A DNA stretch of 64,000 bases from positions 40,052,001-40,116,000 of the forward strand of contig CM097886.1 of NCBI GenBank assembly GCA_044892525.1, given 5' to 3'. The stretch is from Schmidtea polychroa. Its lineage: Eukaryota. A program made the position numbers and the translations under genes. This document shows positions 17,533-64,000 of this stretch, piece by piece. Every line of letters begins with the position of its first letter. Positions within the stretch are counted from its first letter, which is position 1. Below the pieces are notes generated by a model, which did not search any database, had not been told where the DNA came from, and saw only the letters and a list, made by a program, of their open reading frames with translations.

Positions 17533-20500
17533 ATGGCTGAGCACAATTTACAATTAGCTTTATATTTTCTCGAAATGTTGTATAGTAAAGGACCATTGCC
17601 TTTAAATCTGATAGCAGAAGTTTATCAAAGTAAAATATTTCCTCAGCAAATGCTAACATATGATAATTTAATAAACGAAACGGTGTTGTTTTTAAAGCAG
17701 TATCCATCATTATTCCAAACTGATGCTGACTTTGTCTTCCCTGCATCAAGTGATAATTCATGTCACAGTGAACCTTTACCAACTAACAATATTCATTCAT
17801 CTCGTTTTATAAATAATAGACGATTATCCGTAGATGATTATGATATAGCATTAGAATCTGAAGCTGTTAAATATTTTCAAAATCATTTGTTAAAAAAGGA
17901 AGATAAATGGATACCCATCAAAAGTTTAGCAGGTCACTTGTCACAAGCGTCTGATAACATTCGCCTTGTTATTGGTAATCAGTCGCTTTTTACAGCATTT
18001 TTAATGCGACATTCTCATGTTTTTGAAATACAAGGTGAATTGGTTGGTCTAAAGGATAATTTTTTGTCTAATAAATCATTTTCAAATTCTGTTAATGGAA
18101 GAAGAAAGACTAAAGGTAATCAAAATACAGATTCTAGAAGTGTTAAAAGTGACGAAACTAATAATTCTGATAGTAATAAAAGTAACAGTGGAAATGGTAA
18201 AAAAAAATATTCTAGAGAAAATAATAAAAATTCTGAAGTCATTTCAAATTTCATACTTGCTAATGCGTCGAAAATTTTGAAAGGTGAAAATAATAATCAG
18301 AATTCGGTTACTATTGCTCTTTCAGCAATTGATTACAAGACAATAATGTATTTGCATAACACAATAAAATCTATCGAAGAAACTGCTCGAGAATGTAATT
18401 TAGCTAATTTGATGATGAACATAGTTCGAAATTCATCAAATAATATTACTAGCATTGTTGGATTTACTCAGGTATGCTATTTTTAGAAAAAATTACAAAA
18501 TTTTATTGTAGCAAATAGTAAAATAAATTTATAAAGCCAATTAACTCTTGTTTAAATTCACATGCTTTAAATTATGTGTGCTTTGTAGATTTATGATTTA
18601 TTGCTGCTATTTTTTCTTTCAGTATGCAATCAATATTAAATATTGATTTTATTATTAATTTAAATAATGTAAATAGTTTTAACATATTTTATTAAATTTA
18701 GATTGAACTGGAAGAGTATTTAAATAAGCATGCATTATTTTTCGATATTTTGGATGGGGCAATAGTTAGAGTCAGTGATATTTCGAATGTTAATATAATT
18801 ATAAGTGAAAACTGCAATTTGGAATCACTGAGTAATGAAATAGAAAATATTTCACTGTCAAATCGAAAAGGAATAGTATATCATGTTGCAAAACTGTGGG
18901 GAATCATTGATTTGGGCCAGCATGAACATGTATTTTTTGATAAATCAATTTTTAAAAATATAGAAAATTTAGAAAAATACTTTCAGGTAATATTTAATTT
19001 ATTTTTATTTATTTATTGAAAATAAGAATATAATTAAATAATTATTTTAAAATATTTATTATTTTTAAATGTATTTTAAATATATGAATATTTAAATTTT
19101 TAATAAATTATATTATCATTAAGGTGTATAACAGGGATGTCCAAACTTTTTCGAAGGCTGGTCATATTTTTATTAATTTTATTATACCTTGCGGACCAAG
19201 TGTTGAATATATTTAATGAAAATATGAATTAACATCACACATTTTAATTGAATAAATATTGCTATATAGATATACTAAAGCCGTGGTCGCCAAACTTTTA
19301 GTACCGAAGAACACATTCCAAATTATCGATGGTGTAATGGGCACCATTTATTTTTTCAAGATAAATTTATAGTGACTTTCAAATTAACACTTTAAAGGCT
19401 GGCATTTCGAAAATCCATACAAAAATGACGCGAATTCGAGTCATCGACCATTAAAGTGTTAATAACGCAAATAATGTACAAAACAACATATTTAATTTAA
19501 CCGTTAAATTTTAACGTATATTACCTTTATTCAATATACAATACCAAACAACTTTTATTAAGTCAATGTGATTTTTGGCACTGAGTATTAGTGGTCAATG
19601 TCTCATAATTAGGGATATAAGCTGATATTCCTGTTCACAGACAATCATCAAGATGCTCGTCGGTAATTCGAGATCTGTCTTTGGATTTTATTATATTCAT
19701 TGTTGAAAACGACTATTAGCATAAATATGTGGAACCGAAGAACGATTTTATTTTATATGCCGCAATTTTTAACAATGGAAACTTTTTTTTGTCAACTAAG
19801 TTCCAAAATTGTTCATCTGTTACATACGATTTCAGCACAATATCATTTTTAAGATCCAAAATCTCAAGTTCCAGATGCTCTGCTCTTTTTTCAATAAGTA
19901 TTCCAATTGATGTCGCTAATGCTGTTACATTTTCCTGGCTAGAGAGAAAGAATGACTATAAGAAAGATGACTATTGGTTCTATAATAGTAAACTGCTCAA
20001 ATCTATAGGGTACTGCTGTTTTTGACCCCACCAATTTTTAAATAAATATTATTGAAGAAAATTTTAAGAAAATAAATATAAAATAATTTTATATTTAATA
20101 AATAAATAAAAAAATTAACGTAATAATTTAGTAATTGTAATATTATTGCAGATCAACCAACTTAAAAACAAATTATTTTTAAACATTTCCCTAAAACAAT
20201 AATCGTCTAAATGCGACTGTAATAAATTCAATGTTGTACCTCTTGTTGTAGCCACTTGGAGGCCCAGGTTTGACAAATGCGGCCTCTATATAATGAAAAA
20301 TATAACAACGGTATACTTTTTACTGATTAAAAATTTATTATTTCAAAACTTAAAAATACCTAATTCGAAATCTAATACCTAATAAATAAATTTAAAAATG
20401 AGCTTTTCGAGCTGCAAACGAATTTGTTAATTCGAAATAGTCCACAATTCTTGCAATATTGCAATTAATATTTAGCATCGCTAAACCATCTACACGATGC

Positions 20501-23500
20501 TAGAGTATGGTTGATCCTAAATAATTGATTATGTGTTTGAGTACGTTAAAACTCCTCTCTGCGAACTGGCAAGGTTAAAAATATTCTGAGCGCACTTTTT
20601 GATTGTTTGGTGTAGTATCAAAATAGTGTTGTTTGGGGGCCCATAAATTAAGACCCCCTTGTCAAAAGACCCTCCTGACCCTCTCTTCTGGGGCCTATAT
20701 ATATATATATATATATAGTTATTATTAATTTAAAAAATTTCTTCAATAATATTTATTTAAAAATTGGTGCCAAAAATAGCAGTACCATACTAAACATATA
20801 CAAAAAATGTAATGCAATATACATGTAAACAATATTTTGTAAATAAAAAAATTGACAAAGAAATAATAAGTTGTATTCAATATAGCACAGGGTGCCCACT
20901 AATTTTTCTAGGAGAGCTACATTCACATCCAAAATGTGTATGCGATCTACTTTTTTAACATTACATAATATTTACCTACAATGCAATAAATTCATCACAA
21001 TAAAACAAATATATGTCAAAATATGGAAAATTAAAGTATATAACTATTTATTATAAAAAAATGTAACTTAGGAAATCAAATTTAATGAAAATTATTTTTA
21101 TATAGAACTTTTCGATGTTGATGCTCTACATTGGGTTGAATCCACTAGATTTTTGTAGTTTGGGATATAAGTGCTAAGACAACTTCTTAGGCTGGATTCC
21201 AAATGGTCATCTGTTAATGTTGCTCGGTACTTTGACTTTATAATTTTCATATGTGAAAATGCAGACTCACATAAATAAGTTGAACCAAAAAATGATACTA
21301 AATTTTCGAAGCATTTTTTCAAGTTTGAATATTTATCCTCTGATAGATATCTCCATACATTTGGTTCGGAAGATCTTGATTTAATGAAGATATCATTTTG
21401 AAGTGTGATTATTTCCATTTCAAGTATAGGGATATCCATTTTAAACAAAGTTGAAATTGAATCTGCAACAATTTCTGGTTTTATTTTTGGATTAAACGGA
21501 AAGGCTATAAATGCAGCCACAATTTCAAGTTTCTTGAAGTCTTGAAAACGTCTCTCGAACACTTAAACCAAAATTTTGATCTGTTCCGCATATTTAGTAA
21601 TATTAAAGTTGACATTTTCAGATTCTTTTAATTGTGACAACATATTTGGAAAATAACTTAAATTTTTGTCTTCTATTTTGGTAATAAGTAAATGAAGCTT
21701 TTGTATAAATGCATTGATTGAACTTATCATATCGAATATCAATTTATCCTTACCTTGTAAGTCGAGATTTAATTCATTCAGAATTGCAGTAATATCTACT
21801 AAAAATGCCAAATCCAAGAGTCAAACATCATCTTCCAATTGCTTGAACTCATCACCTCTTGCGGCAAGGAACAACTTAATCTCATAAAGCAAATCTCTAA
21901 ATCTTTGTAAGAATTTTCCTCTACTTAGCCACCTTACATCTGTATGCATCAGTAATTCAGCAGGACCTTCGCTATTACTTTCTTCAATTTGTAATTTGAA
22001 AAGTCGTCTCTGAAGACTTCTTGCACGAATCGAGTTAGCAATTATGAATGTTATTTCCATAATATCTCTCATATTCAGAATTTTAGCACACAAGGCTTGT
22101 AGATGAATAATACAGTGGTAGGAAAGAAAATCTGGGAATTCACAATCATTCCTACAATATGCTATAAATCCGTTGTGACGCCCTGTCATAGCTGGTGCGC
22201 CATCTGTTGTTATTGATACAAGCTTACAAATTTGGAGCTGAATGCTGTTGGCATAAGCTTTAAAATTCTGAAATATATCCTCACCTCGAGTTTTACTTTT
22301 GAGTGGTATAATTGTTAATAATTCTTCCTTCGTAGAAAAATCTTTAAAGACCATTCGAATAAAAATTATAAGCTGCGAAATATCAGCCGCATCAGTTGAT
22401 TCGTCTGCTTGCAATGAAAATGCGGTACAATTTCCTATGTCTAACATTAACTGATTTTTTAAATTGGTACTTATTTCTTGGTTTCTCCGTGTAACTGTAT
22501 TACGGGACAATTGCATATCAGTAATAGCAGAAATTATATCTGATTTATTTTTAAAATCACAAAATAATGATTCTGCCGCTTCTAAAAATGCTTCTTTTAC
22601 AATTACTCCATCACTAAAAGATTTCTTATTTTTTGCCAGAATGTAGCTTACTCGGAAAGATGCAGCTGTAGCTGACTTTGATTTGGATGTTAGCTTCGTA
22701 AAAAATGACTGTTGAAAAGAAATGCATGTTTTCAGTTCCATGATTTTAGACTTGCGTAGTTCACTGTCAAGTGGATAATCAACTGCAAAATTCTTATGAA
22801 TTGTCTTGAAATGCCTTTCCAAATTCCCTCTTTTTGGTAATGAAATAGTAGCTTTACAAATTAAGCAACAACATTTATCTTTAATCATTAGAAAAAAGTA
22901 CTCCTTCTCCATTTCTTCGCTATAATGATAAGTCTTGGCTTTTTTATTTAGCATTTTTAAACAAAATTAATTTAACAAAAAAGCTTAAGAAAATTTTTCA
23001 CTTTGTTACACAAAAATTTAAGCATAAAACAGAAATTTTATATAAAATCTAAATTTATATAAAAAAATATTTTTTTTATGAAGATCTACTAAAAAATCCT
23101 TCGCGATCTACCGGTAGATCGCGATCGACCTTATGGGCACCCCTGCTATAGCACAACAGTTTCAAATGAAATGAGATCCTAAATTTGTAAAAACCTAAAT
23201 AATCCAATCGAATTGTAAACTGAAACAAAAAAATCTTTGATATTAGAATAAATACAATAAACAAATAATTGAATAAATAACCAAGAAATATTCAAACTAA
23301 AACTATAAATATAAATATACAAAAAGTATAAATATTAAGCCATTTTTATATTGGATTACATTTACAAATAGCAATATCAATTATTAAAAAAATAATTAAA
23401 AGCGTGAAATTTCATGTTATATCTAAAATTATATCTAATTGTAAAAATATATTCATTAAAAAATCTTGATGACGTGCCGGGCCGTAGTTAGGGCATGCTT

Positions 23501-31719: not shown

Positions 31720-32848
31720 TCAAATCAAGGGATAAACTGGTACTGCCGCTATTTTGCAGGCATTTATATTCCTAGGTAGTCGGAAATATCCTTCTTCACC
31801 CCAAAATGAGCTCCAACTATTTTTAATTATCCAATATGGTGTCCCGGTGGTTTCTTCGGTCCCGTATCCGACTATCAACACAGCGTGATTAATTTTTAGT
31901 CTATCGCATTCTTTGTCGAGGAAAATGCCTTTTGTATATTTTACAAGCGATTTAGGGGCAGATAATAATGCAGAAATAGGCCCAATTGTAACTAATGCTT
32001 CTTTCATTTTTTCTTCATCATTTTCTGGAATTTGAACAAATCCAGTATCGATTGCTACTACTTTGTTCTTGACGAAATTACATTTAGGATTCATCTCTGC
32101 GGTTTTGCCGGAAACGTAAGGATAACTTTCCTCATTTTCAATTCCTCCATTTGACTTAATATATGACAATGCGTCTTGGACAAATCCACCATCGCAATTG
32201 TCATCATTTGTATCGCAATCAACAATTTGTTGTTCTGATAAGCTGATCAATTTTCCAGTCTTCCTCCAGATCTGGCCTTCCAGAGTACCAGTAATAGCAA
32301 ATGCGTAGCATGATCCACATAGTCCTTGATCTTTTACTTCAGTAACAGCACCTTTCTCTCGCCAGTCGAATGAAGCTGGAAGGTCAATATTCACACTGGA
32401 TGGTAGATATGATGAGCCTGTGATATTTGATATTTTTAATTTAGTCATTTGAGTTAGTTCTTCACTACTCTTAAAACGAAATTTGTTTTAATTTTATATT
32501 GATAATTAAACAAAATGTTACCCAATCACTCAAATGATTGATTCCAATCTCGTATGATTTTTGACCGTTTTCATAAAGATGATTGTGACGATTAATCTCG
32601 AGTAAAGACGAGATGAAATTTAAAAATCTGAAGTTCTCTTCACGCTGGGAACTATAAGATTTATTATAACGCTGTTTAAAGGTTTGAAATTCTCCATCAT
32701 AACGAGACAAGAGAAATACCGTATTTTCTAGCTCCAAAGTGCTAGGAATGCCATCATTATGAACTGATTTTTTATAGTTATAAGTAGTTCTGGCTTCCGT
32801 TATCACTATAAATAGTGCAAAGGATACGATAGGACATTTCCAAACCAT
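31720..32848 (-). CDS. CTSL: Cathepsin L-like papain (C1A) cysteine protease, 2 exons, 358 aa
   Basis: Exons 32848-32522 and 32469-31720 (52-nt GT-AG intron). Signal peptide, I29 propeptide with ERFNIN-like and GINHLSD motifs, and LPASFDWREKG. Catalytic Q..CGSCYAF, NHAVLIVGYG and IIKNSW are intact. Confidence 0.95.
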
Positions 32849-39238: not shown

Positions 39239-40474
39239 TTATTTTCTCATTCTCTTCTTCTGTGGACCAAAATTTCTGTCATTTCTCTGAAAATTAAAAA
39301 TAAATATTTAAGAAAAATAAATATTGAAATCTTACTTTTCGCTTTTGCCCCTGTTCGGTTAAAATAATGCTCCAGTAATTTTTCTCATCAGCATCGGCTA
39401 AAACTGCACCAGTAAATGCATAATTCTGATATTTGAAAAGATCATTTCCTTCAGATTCATAAAGCTTTTTCAAGGCAGATTCAGCGGAATTCTCCTTGCC
39501 CATCCTTATAATAATCTTTCCAGTTATTGGCATATATTCAACCCACGCAACTGGGGCAACTTCTTCCAAATTCGAAGTTAACCAACTTTTTAAATTCTTG
39601 GTTGCCGATCGACTATCTCTTCCATCTGAAAATTCTCCATTGTCATTTTCATCACCCTCTTTTTTTACAAAAGAAAGCTCAATAAGTGCGCCTCTAGTCA
39701 TTTTAGATTGTAATAAAGCCTCTTTCGCAGCTACTGCCTCCTTTTGGCGAATATCTTTTTCTTTAAGTCTTTCTTCATGTTCACTTTTCTTTGATTCCAA
39801 ATAATCCTTTCTATAAATGAATAAAATTATATTAATAAATAAATTATTAACTTACTGCCACATTCTAATAATATCATTATTTTTATATTTTGCAGCTTCA
39901 TCACAAGAAATAAATTTTTCAGCATCTTCTCGATTTTTGAAGACAGCAAAAACACTTCCTTTGAAAGTTTTATCTTTTGGCAAACGCCTCAAGTGAATAT
40001 TCATTGTTGGACCACCATGAAGTTCCAAAAATTCCATGATTGTATCTATTGTTTCTTGATTAGAAAACCCTTTGACGTATACACTTCTATCAAGATTCTT
40101 CTCAGTAATTTCTTGCAAGTTAGATGGCAAGACAAGGGAGGAATTTCTACGAATTCCTTCGTCATTTGCTTCAACTATTTCGGATTTAGAATTTTGAACA
40201 GCCAGTTTAATCAAATCTTTATCATCCGATATACTTTTCAATCTTGGAAATTTCAATAATTCATCATATGAAACCCCTAATGATATTTGTAAAAGAATAA
40301 ATTAGGAAAATAAAAAGTTTACATCCTTCGATTGAGTTATCAATTAAATTCTTTAAATGTTTATCTTTAACAAGATTGATATCACTGAAGTAATACTAGA
40401 GAAATTAAAAGTATTTAAAGAAAATATTAAAATACTTCAATTTGTTTAACCAATTTTGTTTCAACTTCTACCAT
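39239..40474 (-). CDS. SSB: La autoantigen (La motif, RRM1, xRRM), 5 exons, 351 aa
   Basis: Exons 40474-40436, 40395-40323, 40276-39856, 39810-39336, 39286-39239, with 40-49 nt GT-AG introns, total 1056 nt. KQIEYYFSDINLVKDKHL, EGWVSYDELLKFPRLK, RSVYVKGF, FKGSVFAVF; basic C-terminal NLS-like KKRMRK. Confidence 0.95.
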
Positions 40475-49103: not shown

Positions 49104-49755
49104 ATGATTTCTACAAGTAAAACTGTTGAATATGATTGTGTAAATCACAAAATGTATTTGGTAACTTTATTATTTTATCAATTTTTTATATATTTGTGAT
49201 TTATCTCAAGGAACTCGAAATAATGAAAAATTAAGTCCATCCTATTCTGAAGATAATCGCTCATTGAAATTTTTTAACAACACAGTTGAAGATTTTATAA
49301 ATAATCATGATGCTTACACTGATAAGAAAATCATAAATGTTTTAAAAATTTTCAAACATTCCTCTATTGAATATTTGATTGATTTATTTAATTATGATAA
49401 ATGTATTTTGAAGTTATCTAGTTATTTAATGTATTTTGAAAAAACTGTGGTAAACAACGATACACTGAATGAATACTTTTGGAGTTGCATGTATTTAAGA
49501 TTGAAACCGGGATATAGTAGATTGATTTATGAATGGATGGCGAAAGTCGATTTGATTGAAAATAAACTAACGGAAAAACTGAACGATGTTAAGAAAATGT
49601 ATTTAACTTGTTCAATTTGTAAAGAAAATCAAGTTTCGGTTTTGTTTTTACCGTGTGGTCATGTAATTGTTTGTTCTAAGTGTCACGAGAAGAATGTTCG
49701 CAATTGTCAAGCCTGTTCAACTTTGATTAATGAATATCATACTATATATATGTAA
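49104..49755 (+). CDS. BIR-less IAP/MDM2-type C3HC4 RING protein (putative E3 ligase)
   Basis: C-terminal CSICKENQVSVLFLPCGHVIVCSKCHEKNVRNCQACSTLINEYHTIYM. Frame is open from 49165 without an ATG. A plausible model is exon 49104-49116 (ATG ATT TCT ACA A), a GT-AG intron 49117-49210, then 49211-49755. The start is inferred. Confidence 0.8.
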
Positions 49756-51688: not shown

Positions 51689-52347
51689 TGTTGGGCTAGA
51701 ACTGATTTCTAGACCCAAAATACTAATTGTGACTGAAATGTGTAGGTACACAGCAAGTAAAAAAGCACCAAGTAGAGTTAAATATTAAAACCTACACCAA
51801 ATAAACAATATTAACTAAAGGAGAAAGCAACAAAAACATAAACAAAGAAATTAAATAAAATTATACAAAAGCAAGAAGTGATGCAAAAATCTAACTCAAA
51901 ATAACCAAATAACAACCGAGTTACAAAAAACAAACTCGAATAACTTAAAAGATAGTGAAAACAGTAAAAAAAAAAAATTCCAGAAAAACCCAGAACATTC
52001 CATAAAAATGGCAATAATCATCATAAAAGTTACCTTGAACAATAAAAGTTAGAAAAATAACTAAATTGGTAATAAAAATAAAAAATTCGTAAAAGAAATT
52101 CAGAAAAACGTCAATTAAATAAAAACGAAATTAAAAGTAATATGGAATGTTCTGGAACCGTTCCAAATCCATCATGGACGTAAAATTAATGAAAAATAAT
52201 TAAAAATTTAAACTTTAGAAATAAAAACAAAAATTATGGCACAAAAATTGCCATTAAAAATATCAAAATTGCGAAATAGAAAATTCTGGAATAAAAAGAA
52301 TTCGAGTTTGTTTTAATGCATCAATACATACACGTGTACAAAATAGG

Positions 52348-52441
52348 TATATATACCGACGCATTTTAGTCACAAGTTAATCTTTATGCCAAAAAATTTT
52401 TTTTGCTATTACCAGCACACTATTGAAATTTGAAAGTAAGG
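52348..52441 (+). promoter_or_regulatory. LTR TATA box and first splice donor
   Basis: TATATATACCGACGCATTT at 52348 and TGAAA|GTAAGG at 52436. Both are conserved in the diverged LTR copy at 34411 and 34501. Confidence 0.6.
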
Positions 52442-53846
52442 AATGTTTTTGTTATTTATGCATTGTATTTTATGTATTTATTAAACATTTTCTATATATG
52501 ATTTATTAAAGTATTTATTATGCGATAACCTTAATAGGACTCTATTAAATGAATCCCCTTTGAAATTTTTTGTTAATTTTTTTTGAGGGATCAACATCGA
52601 TCGAACTTATCATCGATTTTGATCCGTCTCACATACTAAATGGGTATCAATATTTACAACGTCATTGTGCACGCAGCCTTGACGTAAGCAGGCCACTGCC
52701 TGGCATGCACCTCAATATTATAGTGGTGGGATCGTCGGAGGTCGTACCGACTCAGTGGTATACGCCGCTGGGTTCGTCGATGAATCACCTCCGGACGGTG
52801 GAGTTCGCGGAACTCGTTATCGGTATTATAATACACGGTAGTATATTACCGCTTACATTCACAATAAGGGCTCGTCGTAGGGAGCACAGTGAGGCCCCGA
52901 AAGCAGGCAATATTTCTGTAAATTGACTTTTCACACGCATAATGTACATATAATCTATACATTAAAAATCAACAGCGATACACTACCCTAAGGATAATAA
53001 ATGGAGTAGAGCTCCGGACTCAAATTAACCACAATACACCAAATATGTAGTTGGCTAAACATTTTTCGAGTTAGATTTATGAATTACTACCGACCATAAG
53101 AGTATTGATTAGGAAAGTAAAAAATTCTGCCCTTAAATTAGTATCCCCGACTATCCACCTATTGATAAAAATATAAATCGTAATCTATAATTTGAAATAA
53201 ATTATAAAATTATGCTGAATTGATTTTTCATAAGATTGCACTTTCTAAAAGCTGATAATAGAGTATAAACCTATAATTTGATGTGAACTTATAAGTTATA
53301 TGAGTTATAAATTCGATATAGATTTTAAATTGTAAATCATAAATTGTAAATTATATATGAATTGTATAAATTACCAGTTATATACTTATGAATTATATAT
53401 AACAAAAAACCCTGCCATTAAATATATATATTATATAAATTGGAAATGATATACTTATGTATTATATAGTAAAGAACCCTACCATTGTATATATAAACGA
53501 TAAACTTACACTAACCGGTCTTTTAGAAAATATAAATTAATAAACATATGAAATTTTTTTTTTAAATTACGATCCTGTGTCGATCCCCAAAATTTAGTGC
53601 TAATTGTACTACTTATCTACATCAACTAATGGATATATTGAAATTATATACCTTATTTGCAAAACTTATGGATCTTCCCCGATTGCTACTAAGTATATTA
53701 CTATGTATATACTTCTTAATTATGATGCTCACCAATCGGTGCAATCATCCTACCTGTCATGTTTGAGAAACTTATTAACCATTAATGAATGCATTACTGT
53801 ATGTATTACTTGTAAAATACTATATTATTAATATATTACTAACATG

Positions 53847-54230
53847 TACTACTTATAAAATTACAAATCATAATAAAAATTTCGGATCGATACTACTCGA
53901 ATATGTTACTTATAAAAGTGCAAATTATAATTTATACTTCATATTGATATTATTATAATATACTACTTATAAAATTACGAAGCATAATAAAATTTTAGAT
54001 CAATACTACCCGAATATGTTACTTATAAAAGTGCAAATTATAATTTATGCTTTATATTAATATTATTATAATATACTACTTATAAAATTTCAAACCATAG
54101 TACAAATTTTGGGTCAATACTACTCGAATAGGTTACTTATAAGAGTACAAGTTATAATTTATACCTCATGCTACTTACAAACTTGCCGATCATAATTTAT
54201 GTCAATACTACTCGTATATATGACTGATGA
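53847..54230. repeat. About 114-bp tandem repeat (about 3.5 copies) inside the LTR
   Basis: tactacttataaaatt...caatactac.cgaata.gttacttataa starts at 53847, 53961 and 54074. Confidence 0.85.
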
Positions 54231-56042
54231 ACTTAAACTTATGATGTATACTTTATATTACTACTACTAATATATATTACTTACCCTCGGGAATTACTTG
54301 AATGTATTATCTATCAGTTATAGAACCTACTACTCATTAATAAGGATATTAATCATGTACACATTGTTTTTAAATTATATAGTTTATCTACGAAATCCAT
54401 CATCGTACATATAATTTTAACTTATGAATTGTAATGTTATAAATTACCCCTCCCTTATTATGATTTATATTCGATTAGTTAACATTACTTATGTCATAGA
54501 TACCCTCTAAATTAACCCTATAATGCCCCATACTTGAATGTTTGGATTAATCCTACTATAGCATAAAATTTATGAATATGCTACTCGTCTAAAAATTGTG
54601 TAACCCCTATAAGTTATTAATATACTATTTACACTCGTATTACATCATAAATATATTGTTTGCACATATACTACTTATAAATTGGAAAACCCCATAAATA
54701 GCAATTAAGAAATACTACCTGTAAATCAGGGATAATTGGATGCATAACCTACTCGATGCACATACTACTCCCTAGTAAATATATGGAAATCGTAAGAAAG
54801 AAATTTTACACCATAAAATTTATTAAAACTAAATAAAATTGTAATAAACGAACCTGGCTCAGTAATTGATAAATACACCAGAAAATTTATTGAAACTAAA
54901 TAACCCGATGTTATTTACATAATAGAGTCAGAATGCAAGGCCAATACTTTAATAAGTCGATCACTAATACCACAAAGACGCCACGATGATAATTATGCCA
55001 GACAGTTCTATTGCATACTCCAAAAGTCGCCGACTTTGAATTGTCTAACGTCTGGTTGTATGGTTCTTGCCCTGGCCGACTCATTGAATGTGATTCGCGA
55101 GAAGTTGTTGATAGCGGAACAACAGAAGAATTTGCCGACTAGATTTCTCGACACCCGAAAAGATGTGTCTACAGAGTGAACAACAGGACGTCAGTGAGCA
55201 AATTAGACATGAATATCGATTCACCATCGAAAAGCTGTTGACAGATTGTACTTCCCTTGAATTGCGAAACGTATATCTGCTTGTCTTGAGTCATGAATTG
55301 TTCCCACAACGTCGGGGCACGTTCAGTAGGTCCGAGCATGCTTCCAAAGATTTGAAGTTAAGATGATTTGCCAGGGGGGCGTTGCTGGTTTAGATCCATC
55401 GTGCTAGACTTGCCAGGAATGTAAAGCAGGGTGAATACTGGAATTGAAATAAAAATCACAGGCTATCAAACAATGAATAATAAAATCCATACCTAAGAAA
55501 TCGATCTCCACATTTGAAAATTCTTCATCACGATTGTGTAATTTAAAATGACTCCCTTCATCCCTCACCGACTTAAACAAGACTGCGTTGTCAAGGTCGG
55601 GAAAAATTTCGAAATTAATAATTAATTTTTGTGGTTATTTAAGATTACTTTTGGCAACGATAGAATTGGTGTAGTTAAATTGTCTAAACTTATAATTTTT
55701 TTTTGTTTCATATTTTTTTTTAAACTAAAGAATATTCTGAAAATGCTTTATTTGGTTTCAACGTCCTTTCCTCATTCAGCAAATTAGTAAATGTAATTCA
55801 AATGACGTTAACCCAACACAAATGGGATAAAAATTTTATCTTCTTAATATGGTTAATGATTTAAAAGTTATTTCCCTTTTATAGTGCATAGTTCTATTGT
55901 TCAATTGCAATTCCGTTAGGGTTTGCACTATAGGAAAATGACCCAGTAGGTTTAAGAGCTAAAGATTATTTAATGGACAAAAGGGCGTGGTTAAAAAGCC
56001 GATCACCGGAATTAGAAAGATAATTATCCATAACCATTTAGA

Positions 56043-56414
56043 ATGTCAAACTCCAGAGAATCAAGTGAAGTGGAACAATGTGAAACAACGGATGAGCGCC
56101 TCCTATCCAGGCACATCTGGCACCACATACACCGGTGGAGCCAGGGTCGAGATCTAGACTGCTCAAACCGAGTGATTCGAGCAGGCCCCGAGGCGGACGC
56201 ACCGGTATGGGTAAAGACCGAGCCGGACAATAATTGGCTCGTCGAGGCCAGAGATCGCACCATGGATGCCATCGCTCTAGCTCAACGCGAACTCCGCCTG
56301 ATCGAGGCTCGACTCCGTGCCGTCGAAACCGGTCAGCCGTTAGAAGAAGTGGACGTGGGGCCGACACCGGCGAGGAAACGGGGCCGACCCCGCAAGAATG
56401 CTTCCCGAAACTGA
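56043..56414 (+). CDS. LTR-encoded 123-aa protein with C-terminal AT-hook
   Basis: ATG-initiated and GC-rich relative to the flanks. RKRGRPRK at 56373-56396 follows a short amphipathic helix (LAQRELRLIEARLRAVE); AATAAA downstream at about 56486. Confidence 0.6.
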   Translation: MSNSRESSEVEQCETTDERLLSRHIWHHIHRWSQGRDLDCSNRVIRAGPEADAPVWVKTEPDNNWLVEARDRTMDAIALAQRELRLIEARLRAVETGQPLEEVDVGPTPARKRGRPRKNASRN

Positions 56415-56681
56415 GACTTCAGTGATCTTGGGGACGATCTCACATTTTATTTTGATTTTAGTGATTCGTCACAATCTTGGTTTAATAAACGTATTGTTTT
56501 TTTTCTTGATTCGATGTGTCGTTCTAAGCGTTGTTACTTTAATAAATTGCATTATATAATAATCGAGACGTTATCATCCTGACCATCCACCCGACGGAAA
56601 TTTATATACACATAGGGGCACCCGAGTTTCGATTATTAGAGACCGGCAATTTTGAGGAGATAAAATTACGGTAAAAATCGG

Positions 56682-57176
56682 TTGATTGTATATTTTACTT
56701 CAGTGTACAAACTGTTCGAGGGACTCCGGAAGGACAGGGAGCAGGCGCAGCAGCAAGTAGAGCGGCTGCAACTTAGCGTCAATCAGTTCAAAGAGCGCTG
56801 TCGGAGGATGGAACAGAGTTGGATCCGCCCTGAGGTGGCCCATAAGTACTTGAGGCAGATCGAACAACTACAGCTCCAGAGCACTCAAGACAAAACCGAG
56901 ATACGGGCCCTAAAGTTACAGATGCGGGCCATGGAGACAAAATTGAACCAACGGGCCATCGATGAGCACGTCACGGCAGCGATCCGGCCCATGGCTATAG
57001 AACTGGCCGAAATGCACCCACCCAAACCCAAGGCCAAGCGAAAACGGTTAGGCCGAGATGGTCGGGATCGACTCAAACGGCTACGGCTAGCCGAACAAAA
57101 ACTAGAAGAAGAGGCAAGGAAGTCAGCGCTACTTGACGGTTCATGTGCAGGACCGATGGATGTAAATAAAGTGTAA
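56682..57176 (+). CDS. LTR-encoded coiled-coil protein with basic NLS-like segment (probably a spliced exon)
   Basis: 164-codon GC-rich frame with heptad-like E/Q/L/R runs and PKPKAKRKRLGR. Acceptor TTTTACTTCAG at 56693-56703; first in-frame ATG at 56808; AATAAA overlaps the 3' end. Confidence 0.6.
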   Translation: MIVYFTSVYKLFEGLRKDREQAQQQVERLQLSVNQFKERCRRMEQSWIRPEVAHKYLRQIEQLQLQSTQDKTEIRALKLQMRAMETKLNQRAIDEHVTAAIRPMAIELAEMHPPKPKAKRKRLGRDGRDRLKRLRLAEQKLEEEARKSALLDGSCAGPMDVNKV

Positions 57177-57497
57177 ATAGTTGAAGTTGAATTTCTGTAT
57201 GCCGAATGATGAAGATGAGTGATATGTGCGTGGTGTTTTTGGGAAAACTATAGAGGTAGGGGACCAATGAAATCGGACACAAATCTTCTAACGATAGTCC
57301 GTGGACCCAAGGAGTGCTTGACAATTATAGTGCAAGTGGTGCACTCACTTTTTGCGAACACTCCCCCAGTTGACACAGTACCAACGGTGATCGTTCATCG
57401 GGTGTCAATTGGCAAAATCAAGCTTGTATTCTGGGTTACGCTGGAAACAGCACGAAAGAGTGAAATGTCTAACCACCTGTAACCCACCATACAAATT

Positions 57498-57515
57498 TGG
57501 GGGCTCAGCCGGGAT
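57498..57515 (+). other. Primer-binding site complementary to the tRNA-Pro 3' end
   Basis: TGGGGGCTCAGCCGGGAT is 16 of 18 identical to the classical tRNA-Pro PBS TGGGGGCTCGTCCGGGAT and lies just after a CA dinucleotide. Confidence 0.9.
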
Positions 57516-58162
57516 TGTTGAAAATCTTTTTGGTGAAAGAACCGTGAAAATATATTATTGGGAAGCACAAAAATTGATATAACAAGTGAGAAGTCTATTG
57601 TTTTCCCAAATACATAAATCTTATATATAGATATTAGTATGATGAAAATGAATGTTGAATTGTGGGTGATGAATGAAAGTTTTGTTGTAAATATAAGAAG
57701 ATAACGAAATTAAGTACTGGAGTATTGTATGAATAACTGAAATCGAAATAGCGATAAATAAAAAATAAAAACAAAAATACAAAAATTGCAAACATCAACG
57801 ATTGGAAAATGTAAATAAATGAAATAGTAAAATTTAAATAGGAAAAAAGGGGGGACAAGCACGCGAACAAATTGGAAATAAATGAACAAATGTAATCGAA
57901 CTTAATCGAGAAACGCGAGAAAAATGGGATAAACGGGATATGGATTATATATAATAAAATGAATATAATAAATAACTAAAATCATGGACAAGAGCTTCGC
58001 GCAGAAAGACAAATCAAGGGAAACAGGCGCGGATAAGGATGATATTTTCTGAATAGAATTCAAAAATAAATTACTTAAAACTGAAAGGGATAATAGGGGA
58101 ACTAATAAATGGGGAAAATAATGAGGGTTTTAACAAATTTTAAATTAACAAATTGTAATTAG

Positions 58163-58645
58163 ATGGAATTAACCGGCTACATTGTAAAGAAACTTGAGAA
58201 CTTCGTTAATCTGACAAACAATTCGCTACAACGATTAAATCGAAAAGCAGACCAGTTACTAAAAATCCACGACGAACTGAGCTTGAAACCAAGACCACAA
58301 GCTGAGGAAGTATGCGTAATGATGAGAATAGCAACACCCAACGCGGAACTGAGTACTAAAAGAGTTTATCAAATCCAAAATTTACGATTGGATAATGCCA
58401 AGTTTAACATCAAATGGCAGGAGATAATGATAAAAATGGAAACGATTGAAGAGGAAATTAGAGAAGCAATTGAACGCCAAGTTAAAGACTTCAGAAAATG
58501 CTTTATATGTAGAATCAACGAAATACGGGTAATGATGATACCCTGTGGTCATTTATGTTACTGCGAAGGGTGCGCAGAAAAAGTAAAACGATGTAATGCA
58601 TGTGATACAAACGTTAGAGAAAGAGTTGTAATATACCTCCCATAA
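58163..58645 (+). CDS. Retroelement-encoded coiled-coil plus IAP/MDM2-type C3HC4 RING protein (160 aa, no BIR)
   Basis: Intact ATG-to-TAA, intronless. CFICRINEIRVMMIPCGHLCYCEGCAEKVKRCNACDTNVRERVVIYLP; AATAAA at about 58704. Confidence 0.88.
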   Translation: MELTGYIVKKLENFVNLTNNSLQRLNRKADQLLKIHDELSLKPRPQAEEVCVMMRIATPNAELSTKRVYQIQNLRLDNAKFNIKWQEIMIKMETIEEEIREAIERQVKDFRKCFICRINEIRVMMIPCGHLCYCEGCAEKVKRCNACDTNVRERVVIYLP

Positions 58646-59389
58646 GGAGATGTGGTCGAATAAATGATAAAGAAGTGAATTGTAAATGAGTACGAATGAT
58701 AAAATAAATATTAAATTATATTAAAATCCATTATAGCAACCGAAAGGTATAAAACATACGATGAACATAGACATATAAAGGACACAAAAGACGTTAAATA
58801 AATAGACAAGCAACACAGCATTTAGAACAACAAAAATCAAAATTGGATGTGAGACGGATCATAGTCGTATAGATGGGCTGATCTATAAGATCAATACGAT
58901 TTCCATTTCCAAAATTTTTCCTTTTCTTCCTTGTTATTATTTTTGGCATAGAGATACGATAATGAGGGGATGACAAGTGAACCGTCCTTACGACACTTGC
59001 CCGGATGGGGAAATCCTGATCACTCCGATGAGAGAATGTAGTAGGATCCATCGCAAATGTTGGGGAGTTTCTGTCGAGTGACTGATCACCACTTGTGGGA
59101 GAGGAACCAACGCGATTATTATATTTTTTTGTCTGGGAGACGGGGATTGACTAAAAGGGTAAATAAAAATAGAAAAACAAAATAAAAATTGAAAAATGCG
59201 CGCTAAAACGTTAAAAATTTAATCCGAGAGCAGCTGCGGATTTGAAGAAACCGTTTTTGGACTTCAAATCGAATGAAGAGTATTGATTTTTCCCTAGCGA
59301 GTGATGAGGCACCCGAGTACAGCGGCTAACCACCGGACTGTAGTGTCCAGGAGATTATCAGCCAAGGGACTGATGATGCTGGATCACCC

Positions 59390-61002: not shown

Positions 61003-64000
61003 AAACATCAGAGCTCGATCAACGAAGTAGAAAATTTATCAATATTGAAAAGAGGAAAAATTGAGAGTATAGCTAGCCGAACGAGACAAAAAAGTAAAGG
61101 AAACCTCAGTTTATTAGAAAAAGAGGAGATACAAAGAGCCAAGAAAAACAGAAAACTATACAAGAAACCGGAATCGGTGGAAACAGTATTTGAATCAGAA
61201 AGTTTAACTAACGAATTTGAGAACAGCGACGATCCTAAACGAACCGAATTAGATCCAATAAGCGACGTCGAATCAACTGACGAAGAGGAAAATATATCCG
61301 AGACAACAGAGATAACCGTACTGTGCCAAGAGATAATGTCGGACGGAAACCTAAATGAACCAGGGGTATTTAGAGATAAATTTCGAGGAGAGCCATTCGA
61401 TGGAAATATAAACCAGTTGGAAACGTTTATAAAAGAATTCGAAGTATATATTACGATATGCCGCTGGCCAGATCTGACCGTACGAGAACGAATACCCCTA
61501 TATCTAAAGGGAATCGCCCAAGATGTATATTTGGAGACGAAATGCGATGCAACAAAATTGAGAACGTGGAAAGAGATCAAAGAGTTTCTAATAAAAACAT
61601 TCGGTACCGAAAAGGAAGGAAATCGGAAAATGTTAGACTTTCTACATCGAAAGCAGAAATATAGTGAATCCAATGCACTGTACGCATGTGAATTGAGACG
61701 ACTAGCAAGAGAAGCCTTCGATTCAAATCAACCAGTTCCGGAAGACAAGATAATAGCCGTATTCATAGATGGTATGAAACGGGAGGATATACGAGCAACC
61801 TTGGGATGTCGAGCACCAGAGACGCTGGAAGAAGCACTAAAAATAGCTAACAAGTGTGAAACCTACTTAACACCAATACAAGTAGCAGCAATGACAGCAG
61901 CTCCAGCAGCTCCAGCAGCAACAGCAACAACCACAAACAATCAAATCAATAATGAAAATCCAGTAATGAATCAATTCATCCCAGGATCGCAACAGTTGTT
62001 CAAAGCTCCACAAACAAGAAACCAAGACAATGGAGGTAATGTTCAAAGTTTTACTAATAATTTCAGGAACAACGACATTAACAATCGAACGTGCAACATA
62101 TGCCAACGACCAGGGCATTGGAGCAATGAATGTTATAGAGCAAGGATGTGTCAAAAGTGTGGGAGAAGAGGCCACACGGAAAATGTCTGCAGAGGACCCA
62201 TGATGTCTATGGGCAGAGGAGGAAGCAGAACCTGCTACAATTGCAATCAACCTGGACACATGGCAAGAGAATGTACGATGAGAACCAAACCAAATCAACC
62301 AGGATCAAACAATCCAAGTCAGAACACACAAATTAACCTCATGCAGGAAATCGAACAATTAAAAGATATGATCCAGCGAATACCGACTAATAACCAACAA
62401 CAACGAATCAACATGATGCAGAGCAACGAGGAAATCCGGAAGCAACCAAGTAAGCAACAACAAGATCAACAACGGATCGAATGGCAAAGATTACAAAACG
62501 AGGAAGCCAGAGAAATTCAAGAAAGATGGAAACAACGGGAAGCGAATCCCGGAAGAATAAATATGATGAGATTAACAAATAAAGAGGAATCGCACACTGC
62601 GGAGCAGTGTGTTAACAACGACGGGAGTGAACCGATAATAAACAAGGAGATAAAAACGACAAAAGAAAATGAGATTGATCCACAGACAGAATTGAGCAGT
62701 GAAGAGAAAATACAATTGATTAAAGAATTTACCAAAGAGGAGAAAGAAAGGAGACAAAAGAGAGATGAGAGTAAAGACGAACCAAAAAGCAATGAGATAG
62801 TTACAAAAAATCGAATTCAGAGGGTACTACTACAAAAAATCGAAGACAGAATCAAAAACGAAAACCCTACATTAACTAAGGAACAAATTAAAGAAAAAGT
62901 GAAAGAGCATTGGTTCAGGAAAAATGAGTGGTTCGAAAAGAAAGAACCACATACCAAAGCTAAAATAAACATGTTGAGACAAATGCGGAGTGATCAGACG
63001 GATCAAGAAGATGAGAAAAGTGAGGTGAGTAGCCTGGGAGGCGAATTATTTCAGTCAAGCGAGGAAAATAACGAACCAAAGACACCTCCAAACAGTGAAA
63101 CACCTCAAAGTAGTGATGAGAGTGAAAATGATGACATGAAATCAATGATAGAAAAAGATGATGAGGAGATATTTGAGAAAATTTTCGACACAGTAACAGA
63201 AATAGAGCGGAATGAGAGCTACATCAACGAGCTAACATATAGAAAATGCGTAAAACTTATAACTCAAGTATACCAGTGTGAAGGAGGTATAATAACGGCA
63301 GCATGGAAAGATTTAGCAACAAAATATAAAGAGAAACTAAAGGAAGCAGGCCCAGATCAATATCAGGTAAGTATTCAACACCCCGAGATTCAGATACAGA
63401 CTATTGAATTAAAAGGAACAAATACCGATGAACTGTACAACTGGGTACAGGAAAAAATGGGAACGAGCCATAAAAATAAACAATTATATGTCGATGGTTA
63501 CAAAGTTAAAATGGGCATACATTTGGTAGATGCGATGATATGGCCAAACGAAACTAACATCTTAACCTTAGAGAAAACCGGAGATGACGAATCGGTAGCA
63601 GAAATGTTCAAGAAAATTCAACAAGTATTTAACAATGAAGTGGAACCGGAATTGGAAAAGATCGAACGAAAAATAATGAAAGAAAATCAAATAATCTTAG
63701 TCAAGCAAGCTATCGATCAGGCAAGGAAATACATTAATAGACTGAGAGAAAGATGGCCACAACTAATGAAACAATTTGTCAAAGACGTACGAGACACGGA
63801 AATTATGAGATTCGAAGATGAACGAGCGACAGAATTGATATCCAAATACGGAGAATACGAGAGAACCAAACGCGAACAAGAAACGATAAAAATAAAGGTG
63901 AAGTTGCCAAATGAAGAGAAACAAATAATAGAAGTTAATCCCGATTGCCAAGTTGACGAGTTAGTGCAAATCATAGATCAAGAAATCATCCAAAAAGCTC
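61003..64000 (+). CDS. gag: Gag polyprotein, open to the window end (about 999 codons): Ty3/Gypsy capsid, 3 CCHC zinc knuckles, long acidic/coiled extension, two ubiquitin-like domains
   Basis: Absent from the ORF track because it has no stop in the window. I translated frame 61003 onward without stops; first ATG at 61336. Capsid FDGNINQLETFIKEFE...LYLKGIAQDVY...TWKEIKEFLIKTF...PETLEEALKIA. Knuckles CNICQRPGHWSNEC, CQKCGRRGHTENVC, CYNCNQPGHMAREC (62092-62274). Confidence 0.9.

Follow-up and report, generated by a model that had tools for sequence, protein, structure and literature searches.

Burro/GYPSM1 elements are giant gypsy-like LTR retrotransposons of planarians (Arkhipova and Yushenova 2019, PMC6431247), which the available portion of that text describes as exceeding 30 kb, with multi-kb LTRs, a Gag with three CCHC knuckles, MATH and accessory ORFs, an env-like fusion domain between gag and PR, followed by PR-RT-RH-IN, ankyrins and BIR. 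The same portion names no stand-alone BIR-less RING between the PBS and gag; its 'AIR1 ... RING Zn-finger' is the name of a motif, given without a position, and the upstream accessory ORF that it describes for a D. tigrina Burro is a MATH_TRAF protein. B-IAP, a BIR+RING protein of Burro1, reportedly protects the stem cells of planarians (PMC13465017, available in part). B-IAP is thus an IAP-class RING encoded by a retrotransposon, and the element analysed here has a counterpart of it, a 392-aa ORF. The subject of the present work is a different gene of that element, a 160-aa leader ORF ending in a RING, which differs from B-IAP in lacking a BIR, the loop-2 Pro and the Arg linchpin, and in being present also in families without B-IAP.

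More distant comparisons are informative in other respects. ORF0 of the plant elements Retrosat2/RIRE3 (PMC3485330) and the extra ORFs of Ogre (PMC6431247) similarly lie upstream of gag-pol in long-LTR Ty3/Gypsy elements and evolve faster than pol; by contrast with the leader ORF, in the accessible parts of these texts they have no assigned function and are not described as RING ligases. The word 'RING' is absent, by term search, from the bdelloid extra-ORF paper (PMC5408684). Iridovirus 413R and the BIR-less RINGs of giant viruses are, like the leader protein, small helix-plus-RING proteins of one Pfam family, but matches to these RINGs of large DNA viruses are confined to the RING, and full-length homology or transfer is not indicated. 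Cellular C-terminal dimerising RING E3s, i.e. cIAP1/2, XIAP, BIRC7, IDOL/MYLIP and MDM2-MDMX, share with the leader RING its fold, a pre-RING helix, a 13-residue tail and an aromatic residue at tail position 11, whereas the leader RING has a degenerate loop-2 and linchpin, is retroelement-encoded, and gives no match to BIR, UBA, CARD or FERM.

It was already known that Burro elements carry ubiquitin- and apoptosis-related cargo, including the RING-bearing B-IAP; what is added here, and is quite possibly already annotated, is the stand-alone leader RING. No description of it was found in the texts available or among the papers listed in searches on Burro, retroelement RING ORFs and related RING biochemistry, and the primary work on Burro1 B-IAP may already annotate the ORF.

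The host element and proposed expression of the leader ORF

The window, i.e. the whole 64,000-nt stretch of Schmidtea polychroa DNA analysed (contig CM097886.1, positions 40,052,001 to 40,116,000), contains the 5' part of a Ty3/Gypsy retrotransposon (Table 1), which spans 51689 to position 91759 of the extended sequence and measures ~37 kb after a hAT insertion is left out. The LTRs are ~99.7% identical and the TSD is 4 bp. The hAT, which has an 883-aa transposase ORF (G000:C2:40137036-40140144, L033, where G000 is the genome), was inserted in the 3' LTR post-integration. The polyprotein, interrupted in the present copy by in-frame stops and one frame change, has the Pfam order Gag (zinc knuckles), MATH, viral-fusion-like domain, PR, RT, RH, IN and ankyrins, and is followed 3' by separate ORFs of 151 aa, 474 aa (TRAF), 392 aa (BIR+RING), 532, 255 and 328 aa. 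With a length >30 kb, multi-kb LTRs, the order Gag-MATH-env-like-PR-RT-RH-IN-ankyrin and a BIR gene, the element fits the Burro description to which the original prediction had referred, the assignment to Burro-type elements being one of architecture. Its TRAF protein is full-length, with zf-TRAF, MATH and a RING-like N terminus in which Cys replaces His, and is found in families A, D and E. The PBS, which was matched against the same genome's own tRNA-Pro(TGG), has 1058 exact 18-mer matches in the genome; the genes for this primer tRNA form a large tandem array with a 475-bp unit (G000:C1:130.9 Mb, L212).

Table 1. Features of the element; coordinates are window positions unless a contig of the genome (G000) is given
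Feature	Coordinates	Strand	Remark
5' LTR, 5.8 kb (TGTT...ACCA)	51689..57489	+	TSD ATAC directly before
TATA-like box (52346) and GTAAG donor-like site (52436)	52346..52440	+	putative short common first exon, inferred
LTR-internal ORF1, 123 aa	56043..56414	+	AT-hook-like end RGRPRK; homologous ORFs in other A-C LTRs
LTR-internal ORF2, 122 aa	56808..57176	+	basic C terminus; 34-50% identical across other haplogroups
PBS TGGGGGCTCAGCCGGGAT	57498..57515	+	exact complement of tRNA-Pro(TGG) 3' end plus CCA
Putative 3' splice acceptor, TTAAC/TTAAT ... TTAG	58138..58162	+	conserved in 7/7 aligned A-C copies; inferred
Leader RING ORF (P0001), 160 aa	58163..58645	+	open frame ending VIYLP*
Gag polyprotein frame, start	61003..64000	+	first ATG 61336; runs on past window end
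TRAF ORF	G000:C2:40128014-40129438 (L032:2014-3435)		beyond window; separate ORF
BIR+RING ORF (B-IAP counterpart), 392 aa	G000:C2:40129579-40130757		beyond window; 19.4 kb 3' of leader ORF
3' LTR	G000:C2:40134772-40143759		beyond window; contains 3.1-kb hAT insertion

The coordinates of the PBS and of the first ATG in the gag frame place the leader ORF between them, 647 nt 3' of the PBS and 3.2 kb 5' of the gag start; coordinates and translation agree with the intact frame ending VIYLP that had been predicted there. The sole domain match above the Pfam cut-off is zf-C3HC4_3, over residues 111-153 (E 2.9e-11), with zinc ligands C113, C116, C128, H130, C134, C137, C144 and C147; the C3HC4 core (113-147) is followed by a 13-residue tail that includes Y158. 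Pfam gave no BIR in this protein or any of 21 family members, domain searches gave no UBA, CARD or FERM match, and neither domain nor database searches found a domain family for the N-terminal part. The RING class assigned by the original prediction, one without a BIR, is thus borne out by the profile match and the eight ligands.

With respect to expression, an unspliced transcript starting in the LTR head would carry 119 ATGs ahead of the leader ORF, so that the ORF would probably be made from a spliced mRNA of its own. The LTR head is conserved over ~700 nt and closes with a TATA-like box and GTAAG; this donor, to which the original prediction had drawn attention, lies 78-93 nt past the TATA in 10/10 family A-C LTR heads. 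In families D and E all 11/11 homologues have a YAG, often preceded by a T-rich tract, whose end is 2 nt upstream of the RING start codon. Across the element, a TAG ends 0-3 nt before the ATG of 7/10 ORFs, compared with 35/766 other ATGs (p ~9e-8) and 23/407 first-ATG-after-stop controls (p 5e-7), and AATAAA occurs near or after 8/10 ORF stops. This arrangement fits a scheme in which one short first exon would be spliced to alternative last exons, each with a single ORF. An 804-nt Logan contig, from a run presumed to be RNA, spans 58150-58954; among the first 15 of 67 joints from Logan contigs of four runs none links the 52436 donor to an acceptor, a set that is uninformative on expression or splicing.

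Several other features of the leader and LTR may be recorded. TGTAnATA, possibly a cleavage-factor or Pumilio site, lies near 7/10 ORF stops (20 occurrences in the whole element), often with AATAAA, e.g. at 57165-57180. A conserved ATG in the putative first exon was considered as a shared gag start and rejected, since in the window, as in L131, L132 and L134, its frame was seen by eye to run into a stop ahead of the donor. The ~110 codons before the gag ATG (61003-61335) are open and without an ATG, with dN/dS of 0.11-0.20 in the deepest pairs and as high as 0.6 between close ones, which may reflect initiation at a codon other than AUG or an upstream exon. ORF1 and ORF2 within the LTR have no Pfam match, and the frames of both stay open, at ~35-50% identity for ORF2, in LTRs that can no longer be aligned as DNA.

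Copies, selection and distant families

A 19-mer from the leader ORF has 202 exact matches in the genome, so there are at least 202 copies. The best 150 scored matches all have E<1e-89 at 84-100% identity, and 140 of these 150 are without an internal stop (10 have a premature one), a fraction biased upward since the list favours the best copies. The PBS is 0.65-0.79 kb upstream in 38/40 loci and gag 2.9-3.7 kb downstream in 34/40; in this constant slot the ORF is evidently copied with the element, as the original prediction supposed. After duplicates were collapsed there were 32 distinct intact ORFs in six haplogroups (15 of loci L001-L030 were left out, one for a stop). All 15 pairs of haplogroup representatives have dN/dS of 0.056-0.15, in the N-terminal part and the RING alike, and for the deepest pairs the Fisher p value is ~1e-20. 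Shifted frames give 0.9-2.2, except for the antisense frame sharing third positions (0.21), and the pairwise ratios give no sign of positive selection. The match scores, together with dN/dS far below 1, argue that this is not a chance frame.

The 5' cassette is a mosaic. Elements whose B-IAPs are at dS ≤0.05 from one another can have RING haplotypes as much as dS 0.85 apart, and L067 and L046 have a RING dS of 0.78 with a capsid dS of 0.05, near-identical gag starts lying beneath different RINGs. Tandem leader RING copies ~6.2 kb apart occur at L054 (G000:C1:265372487-265382486) and at C2:109142479-109167255, a spacing that suggests tandem LTR-leader duplications.

Twenty PBS loci, drawn from the first 100 matches listed and chosen for absence of the 19-mer, were read individually. 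At 11 of them a homologue of 159 or 161 aa begins 320-470 nt after the PBS; these define families D and E, are 26-31% identical to the leader ORF and can be aligned with it end to end. One locus has a degenerate copy of the A-C type, and at the remaining eight the PBS is followed by no RING and no capsid, save for a single piece of capsid at 8.3 kb; non-autonomous derivatives have thus lost the leader RING along with gag. These eight loci (L139, L146, L147, L151, L152, L154, L156 and L158) belong to an abundant non-autonomous family with a tRNA-Pro PBS and a D/E-type LTR end. Compared with family A, D and E have 48% identity in the capsid and ~91% in RT, and the N-terminal 105 aa of the leader protein are by themselves homologous between families (E 1e-4 to 1e-17, 23-36% identity). 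dN/dS is 0.08-0.10 in 6/6 family E pairs, and in family D is 0.14-0.20 in the 10 pairs with dS >0.39 and 0.09-0.55 in close pairs with few changes. Together, the comparisons indicate that the leader ORF is a selected, family-wide coding gene; the outcomes that would have counted against the original prediction, a single neutrally decaying copy or a later insertion, are contradicted by hundreds of copies at the low ratios given above and by the same slot in distant families.

The leader RING is distinct from the IAP-derived ORF reported in Burro1, with which the original prediction had raised a possible connection, a separate BIR+RING gene being present in the same element downstream (Table 1). 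The two proteins can be aligned over the RING region only (35% over 69 aa). Five D/E elements were read further, one of them disrupted; all four that are full-length have the leader RING and TRAF and are without a BIR-RING gene, and a BIR query gave only weak matches in D/E elements (E 0.03-0.4), within the TRAF ORF or an ORF downstream. The leader RING thus has a wider distribution than B-IAP. The simplest reading is that it predates B-IAP capture, the alternative, with trees that are not rooted, being that B-IAP was lost in D and E.

A database gene model, P0005, has an N terminus 34% identical to the leader protein followed by a Burro gag 60% identical to that of family A. As nothing above 36% identity to P0005 is found among 150 scored matches in the genome, it is likely from another species. 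A RING-to-gag fusion was considered and rejected; it is seen in P0005 only, with the RING cut short, and is likely a prediction artefact.

Fold, ancestry and E2-facing residues of the RING

AF2, with a 76-row alignment that did not include families D and E, predicts helices at 2-40, 49-57 and 61-110, then the RING (pLDDT 82.9, pTM 0.44; the single-sequence pLDDT was 45). The coiled coil plus RING of the original prediction therefore stands as to the RING, and the long N-terminal helices are compatible with a coiled coil, their packing not being settled at this pTM. The best Foldseek matches are the RINGs of cIAP2, IDOL, cIAP1 and XIAP (rmsd 0.7-1.3 A), with MDM2/MDMX lower; over 60-65 columns the predicted RING superimposes on those of cIAP2, cIAP1 and IDOL at 0.7-1.0 A. 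The likeness of the aromatic tail to an IAP C terminus was correctly anticipated, in that Y158 aligns with the tail Phe of cIAP2. The eight zinc ligands and Y158 do not vary across 32/32 distinct A-C copies or across 21/21 rows spanning the families, and every family has a tail 13-14 residues long with Tyr where cIAP has Phe. In cIAP1, BIRC7, RNF4 and MDM2-MDMX dimers the tail Phe/Tyr acts in trans (PMC6349121, available in part).

Ancestry is less clear than fold. cIAP2, XIAP and IDOL/MYLIP match the leader RING about equally, and the best longer database matches to the leader profile are BIR proteins in 9/9 cases (E ~1e-9, 26-36% identity). In a tree of 39 rows and 61 columns (18/36 branches open) the B-IAP RING groups with three host IAP-like RINGs (99/96), two of these with a BIR-like exon lying 10-18 kb upstream in the same orientation, whereas the leader RINGs do not join them but form a weak clade (72/71) without a supported sister. 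AU p values were 0.127 for a clade of leader and B-IAP RINGs, and 0.477 for leader RINGs with a RING group found in palindromes (see below), so that neither grouping is rejected. Neither this tree nor a quick tree of 133 rows (84/128 branches open) allows a donor to be named. Thus the term 'IAP-type' that was originally applied holds for the structural class, i.e. fold and tail, and may or may not extend to descent, the leader RING being without a supported tie to host IAPs.

The E2-facing contacts compared were a loop-1 Ile (hydrophobic), a loop-2 Pro and a basic linchpin. Families A-C (32/32 distinct copies) keep the Ile and have Asn, Asp or Phe instead of the Pro and an Asp linchpin (N145 and D148 in the window copy); family D (7/7) has Ile, Ser and Thr/Val, and family E (4/4) Ala, Thr and Lys/Arg. 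Each family therefore keeps one of the three usual E2~Ub contacts and none has the canonical set. By contrast, the B-IAP RING of the element retains the Pro and the Arg, as do three host IAP-like RINGs. Among 115 database RINGs, selected by pattern from 150 matches listed, a set skewed toward the query, the full set of contacts is kept in 49, two in 45, one in 17 and none in 4, i.e. at least two in 94/115.

Possible roles of the leader RING

With two of three usual contacts missing in every family, the plain active E3 of the original prediction is doubtful. Its other suggestion, heterodimers with host IAP RINGs, is plausible. We tentatively prefer a conserved Burro accessory gene encoding a weak, dimerising RING that would modulate host IAP-class ligases rather than act as a strong ligase itself. 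A short LTR exon ending at 52436 would be joined to the acceptor before the RING ATG, giving a dedicated spliced mRNA; the protein would then dimerise through its pre-RING helix and tail, as do cIAP, IDOL and MDM2/MDMX RINGs, and in a heterodimer it would lend its tail to, or tie up, a host RING of that class, host IAPs being prime candidates. The long N-terminal helices would set the partner or target, and as a result element-expressing cells might survive better or element proteins escape ubiquitination. There are precedents for RING heterodimers with an inactive scaffold, and in RNF38 trace activity remains with a Glu linchpin and binding is weaker with Asp, the activity assays covering other mutants (PMC12326332, available in part). 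The eight PBS loci lacking both RING and capsid may be counted in favour of action in trans. Against a weak RING, active ligases with a non-Arg linchpin exist and 21/115 of the database RINGs keep one contact or none; nor does the RING tree link the gene to host IAPs.

It is also a real possibility that the protein is an active, if atypical, homodimeric E3, the main hypothesis of the original prediction. Its N-terminal helices would bring in a host factor of restriction or silencing, and its RING would work with a non-standard E2. The invariance across families of the zinc ligands and tail Tyr, and the close superposition on the cIAP2 and IDOL RINGs, would be accounted for; so would the N-terminal 105 aa, conserved within families and diverged between them to an extent (23-36%, against RT at ~91%) expected of a host-facing adaptor. 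The linchpin identity can alter E2 choice, and XIAP works with a Tyr linchpin, according to the accessible part of PMC12326332. Family E, with Lys or Arg, has a basic linchpin, so that loss of activity is not uniform across the families. However, such an enzyme would have to work without two of the three usual contacts, and in A-C with an acidic linchpin; there is no recognisable substrate-binding domain, and the pairwise ratios lack the mark of positive selection.

Less probable is that the protein is a non-catalytic scaffold for the life cycle of the element, e.g. an adaptor associated with Gag, TRAF or the particle, unlinked to host ubiquitin ligases. Such a role would suit the presence of the RING alongside gag and TRAF in each of the three families, its loss with gag at 8/20 PBS loci, and the viral-fusion-like domain that the element encodes, but it would leave the retention of a dimer-type tail Tyr and tail length unexplained; moreover, the free recombination of RING haplotypes relative to gag, exemplified by L067 and L046, argues against tight co-adaptation with Gag. 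It is less likely still, indeed very improbable, that the leader RING is dedicated to forming heterodimers with the B-IAP RING of its own element. In 77 of 150 listed B-IAP matches a listed leader RING lies 10-45 kb upstream on the same strand, mostly at 20.1-20.4 kb (a lower bound from listed matches; the opposite-strand control was 3), and the B-IAP tail has 16 residues against the usual 13. Yet B-IAPs no further apart than dS 0.05 accompany RING haplotypes as much as dS 0.85 apart, and the four full-length D/E elements have the leader RING alone; B-IAP as a general or obligate partner was dropped for this latter reason. A neutral passenger or later insertion, for which the premature stops in 10/150 best matches and the one degenerate copy could be adduced, is hardly credible and is refuted by selection (dN/dS ~0.1, p down to 1e-20) and by distant families, in which homologues of 26-31% identity share its position and length.

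Returning to the modulation of host ligases, a broader and rather unlikely version would have Burro as a retrovirus-like genome that splices single-gene accessory mRNAs from one LTR exon, with the leader RING as its most widely kept ubiquitin-pathway gene, an MDMX-like pseudo-ligase rewiring host IAP-class ligases in stem cells and predating B-IAP capture. If correct, a transposon-encoded pseudo-ligase would be an unusual tool for host manipulation; if the protein is simply a weak accessory E3 that is already annotated, it adds modestly to what is known of the element. Burro-type elements thus have, besides B-IAP, another RING gene of wider distribution, which is retained where B-IAP is absent. 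It is a candidate explanation for the persistence of the other Burro families, and could confound knock-downs that target sequence shared among elements. Being small, intronless and under selection, the gene lends itself to direct tests of activity, dimer partner and RNAi phenotype.

A second BIR-less RING ORF is present in the window outside the Burro LTR (49429-49755, + strand; 108 aa from its ATG in a frame open for 165-196 aa). It has at least 150 copies at 94-100% identity in the genome (e.g. L093-L098), often as convergent pairs ~3.6 kb apart in near-perfect palindromes of ~15 kb with arms up to 99.5% identical, in which no transposase-like ORF was seen. The palindrome RING and the leader RING share an 'RL' motif and the loss of Pro and linchpin, and the Burro copy in the window is inserted into such a palindrome element. 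Other ORFs in the window, host-like or of TE origin, are an Egalitarian winged-helix exon (17533-18486), a SPIN/hAT-like transposase (21098-22954), an intron-poor papain-family protease over two ORFs (31720-32848) and an RRM_3 exon (39294-39701).
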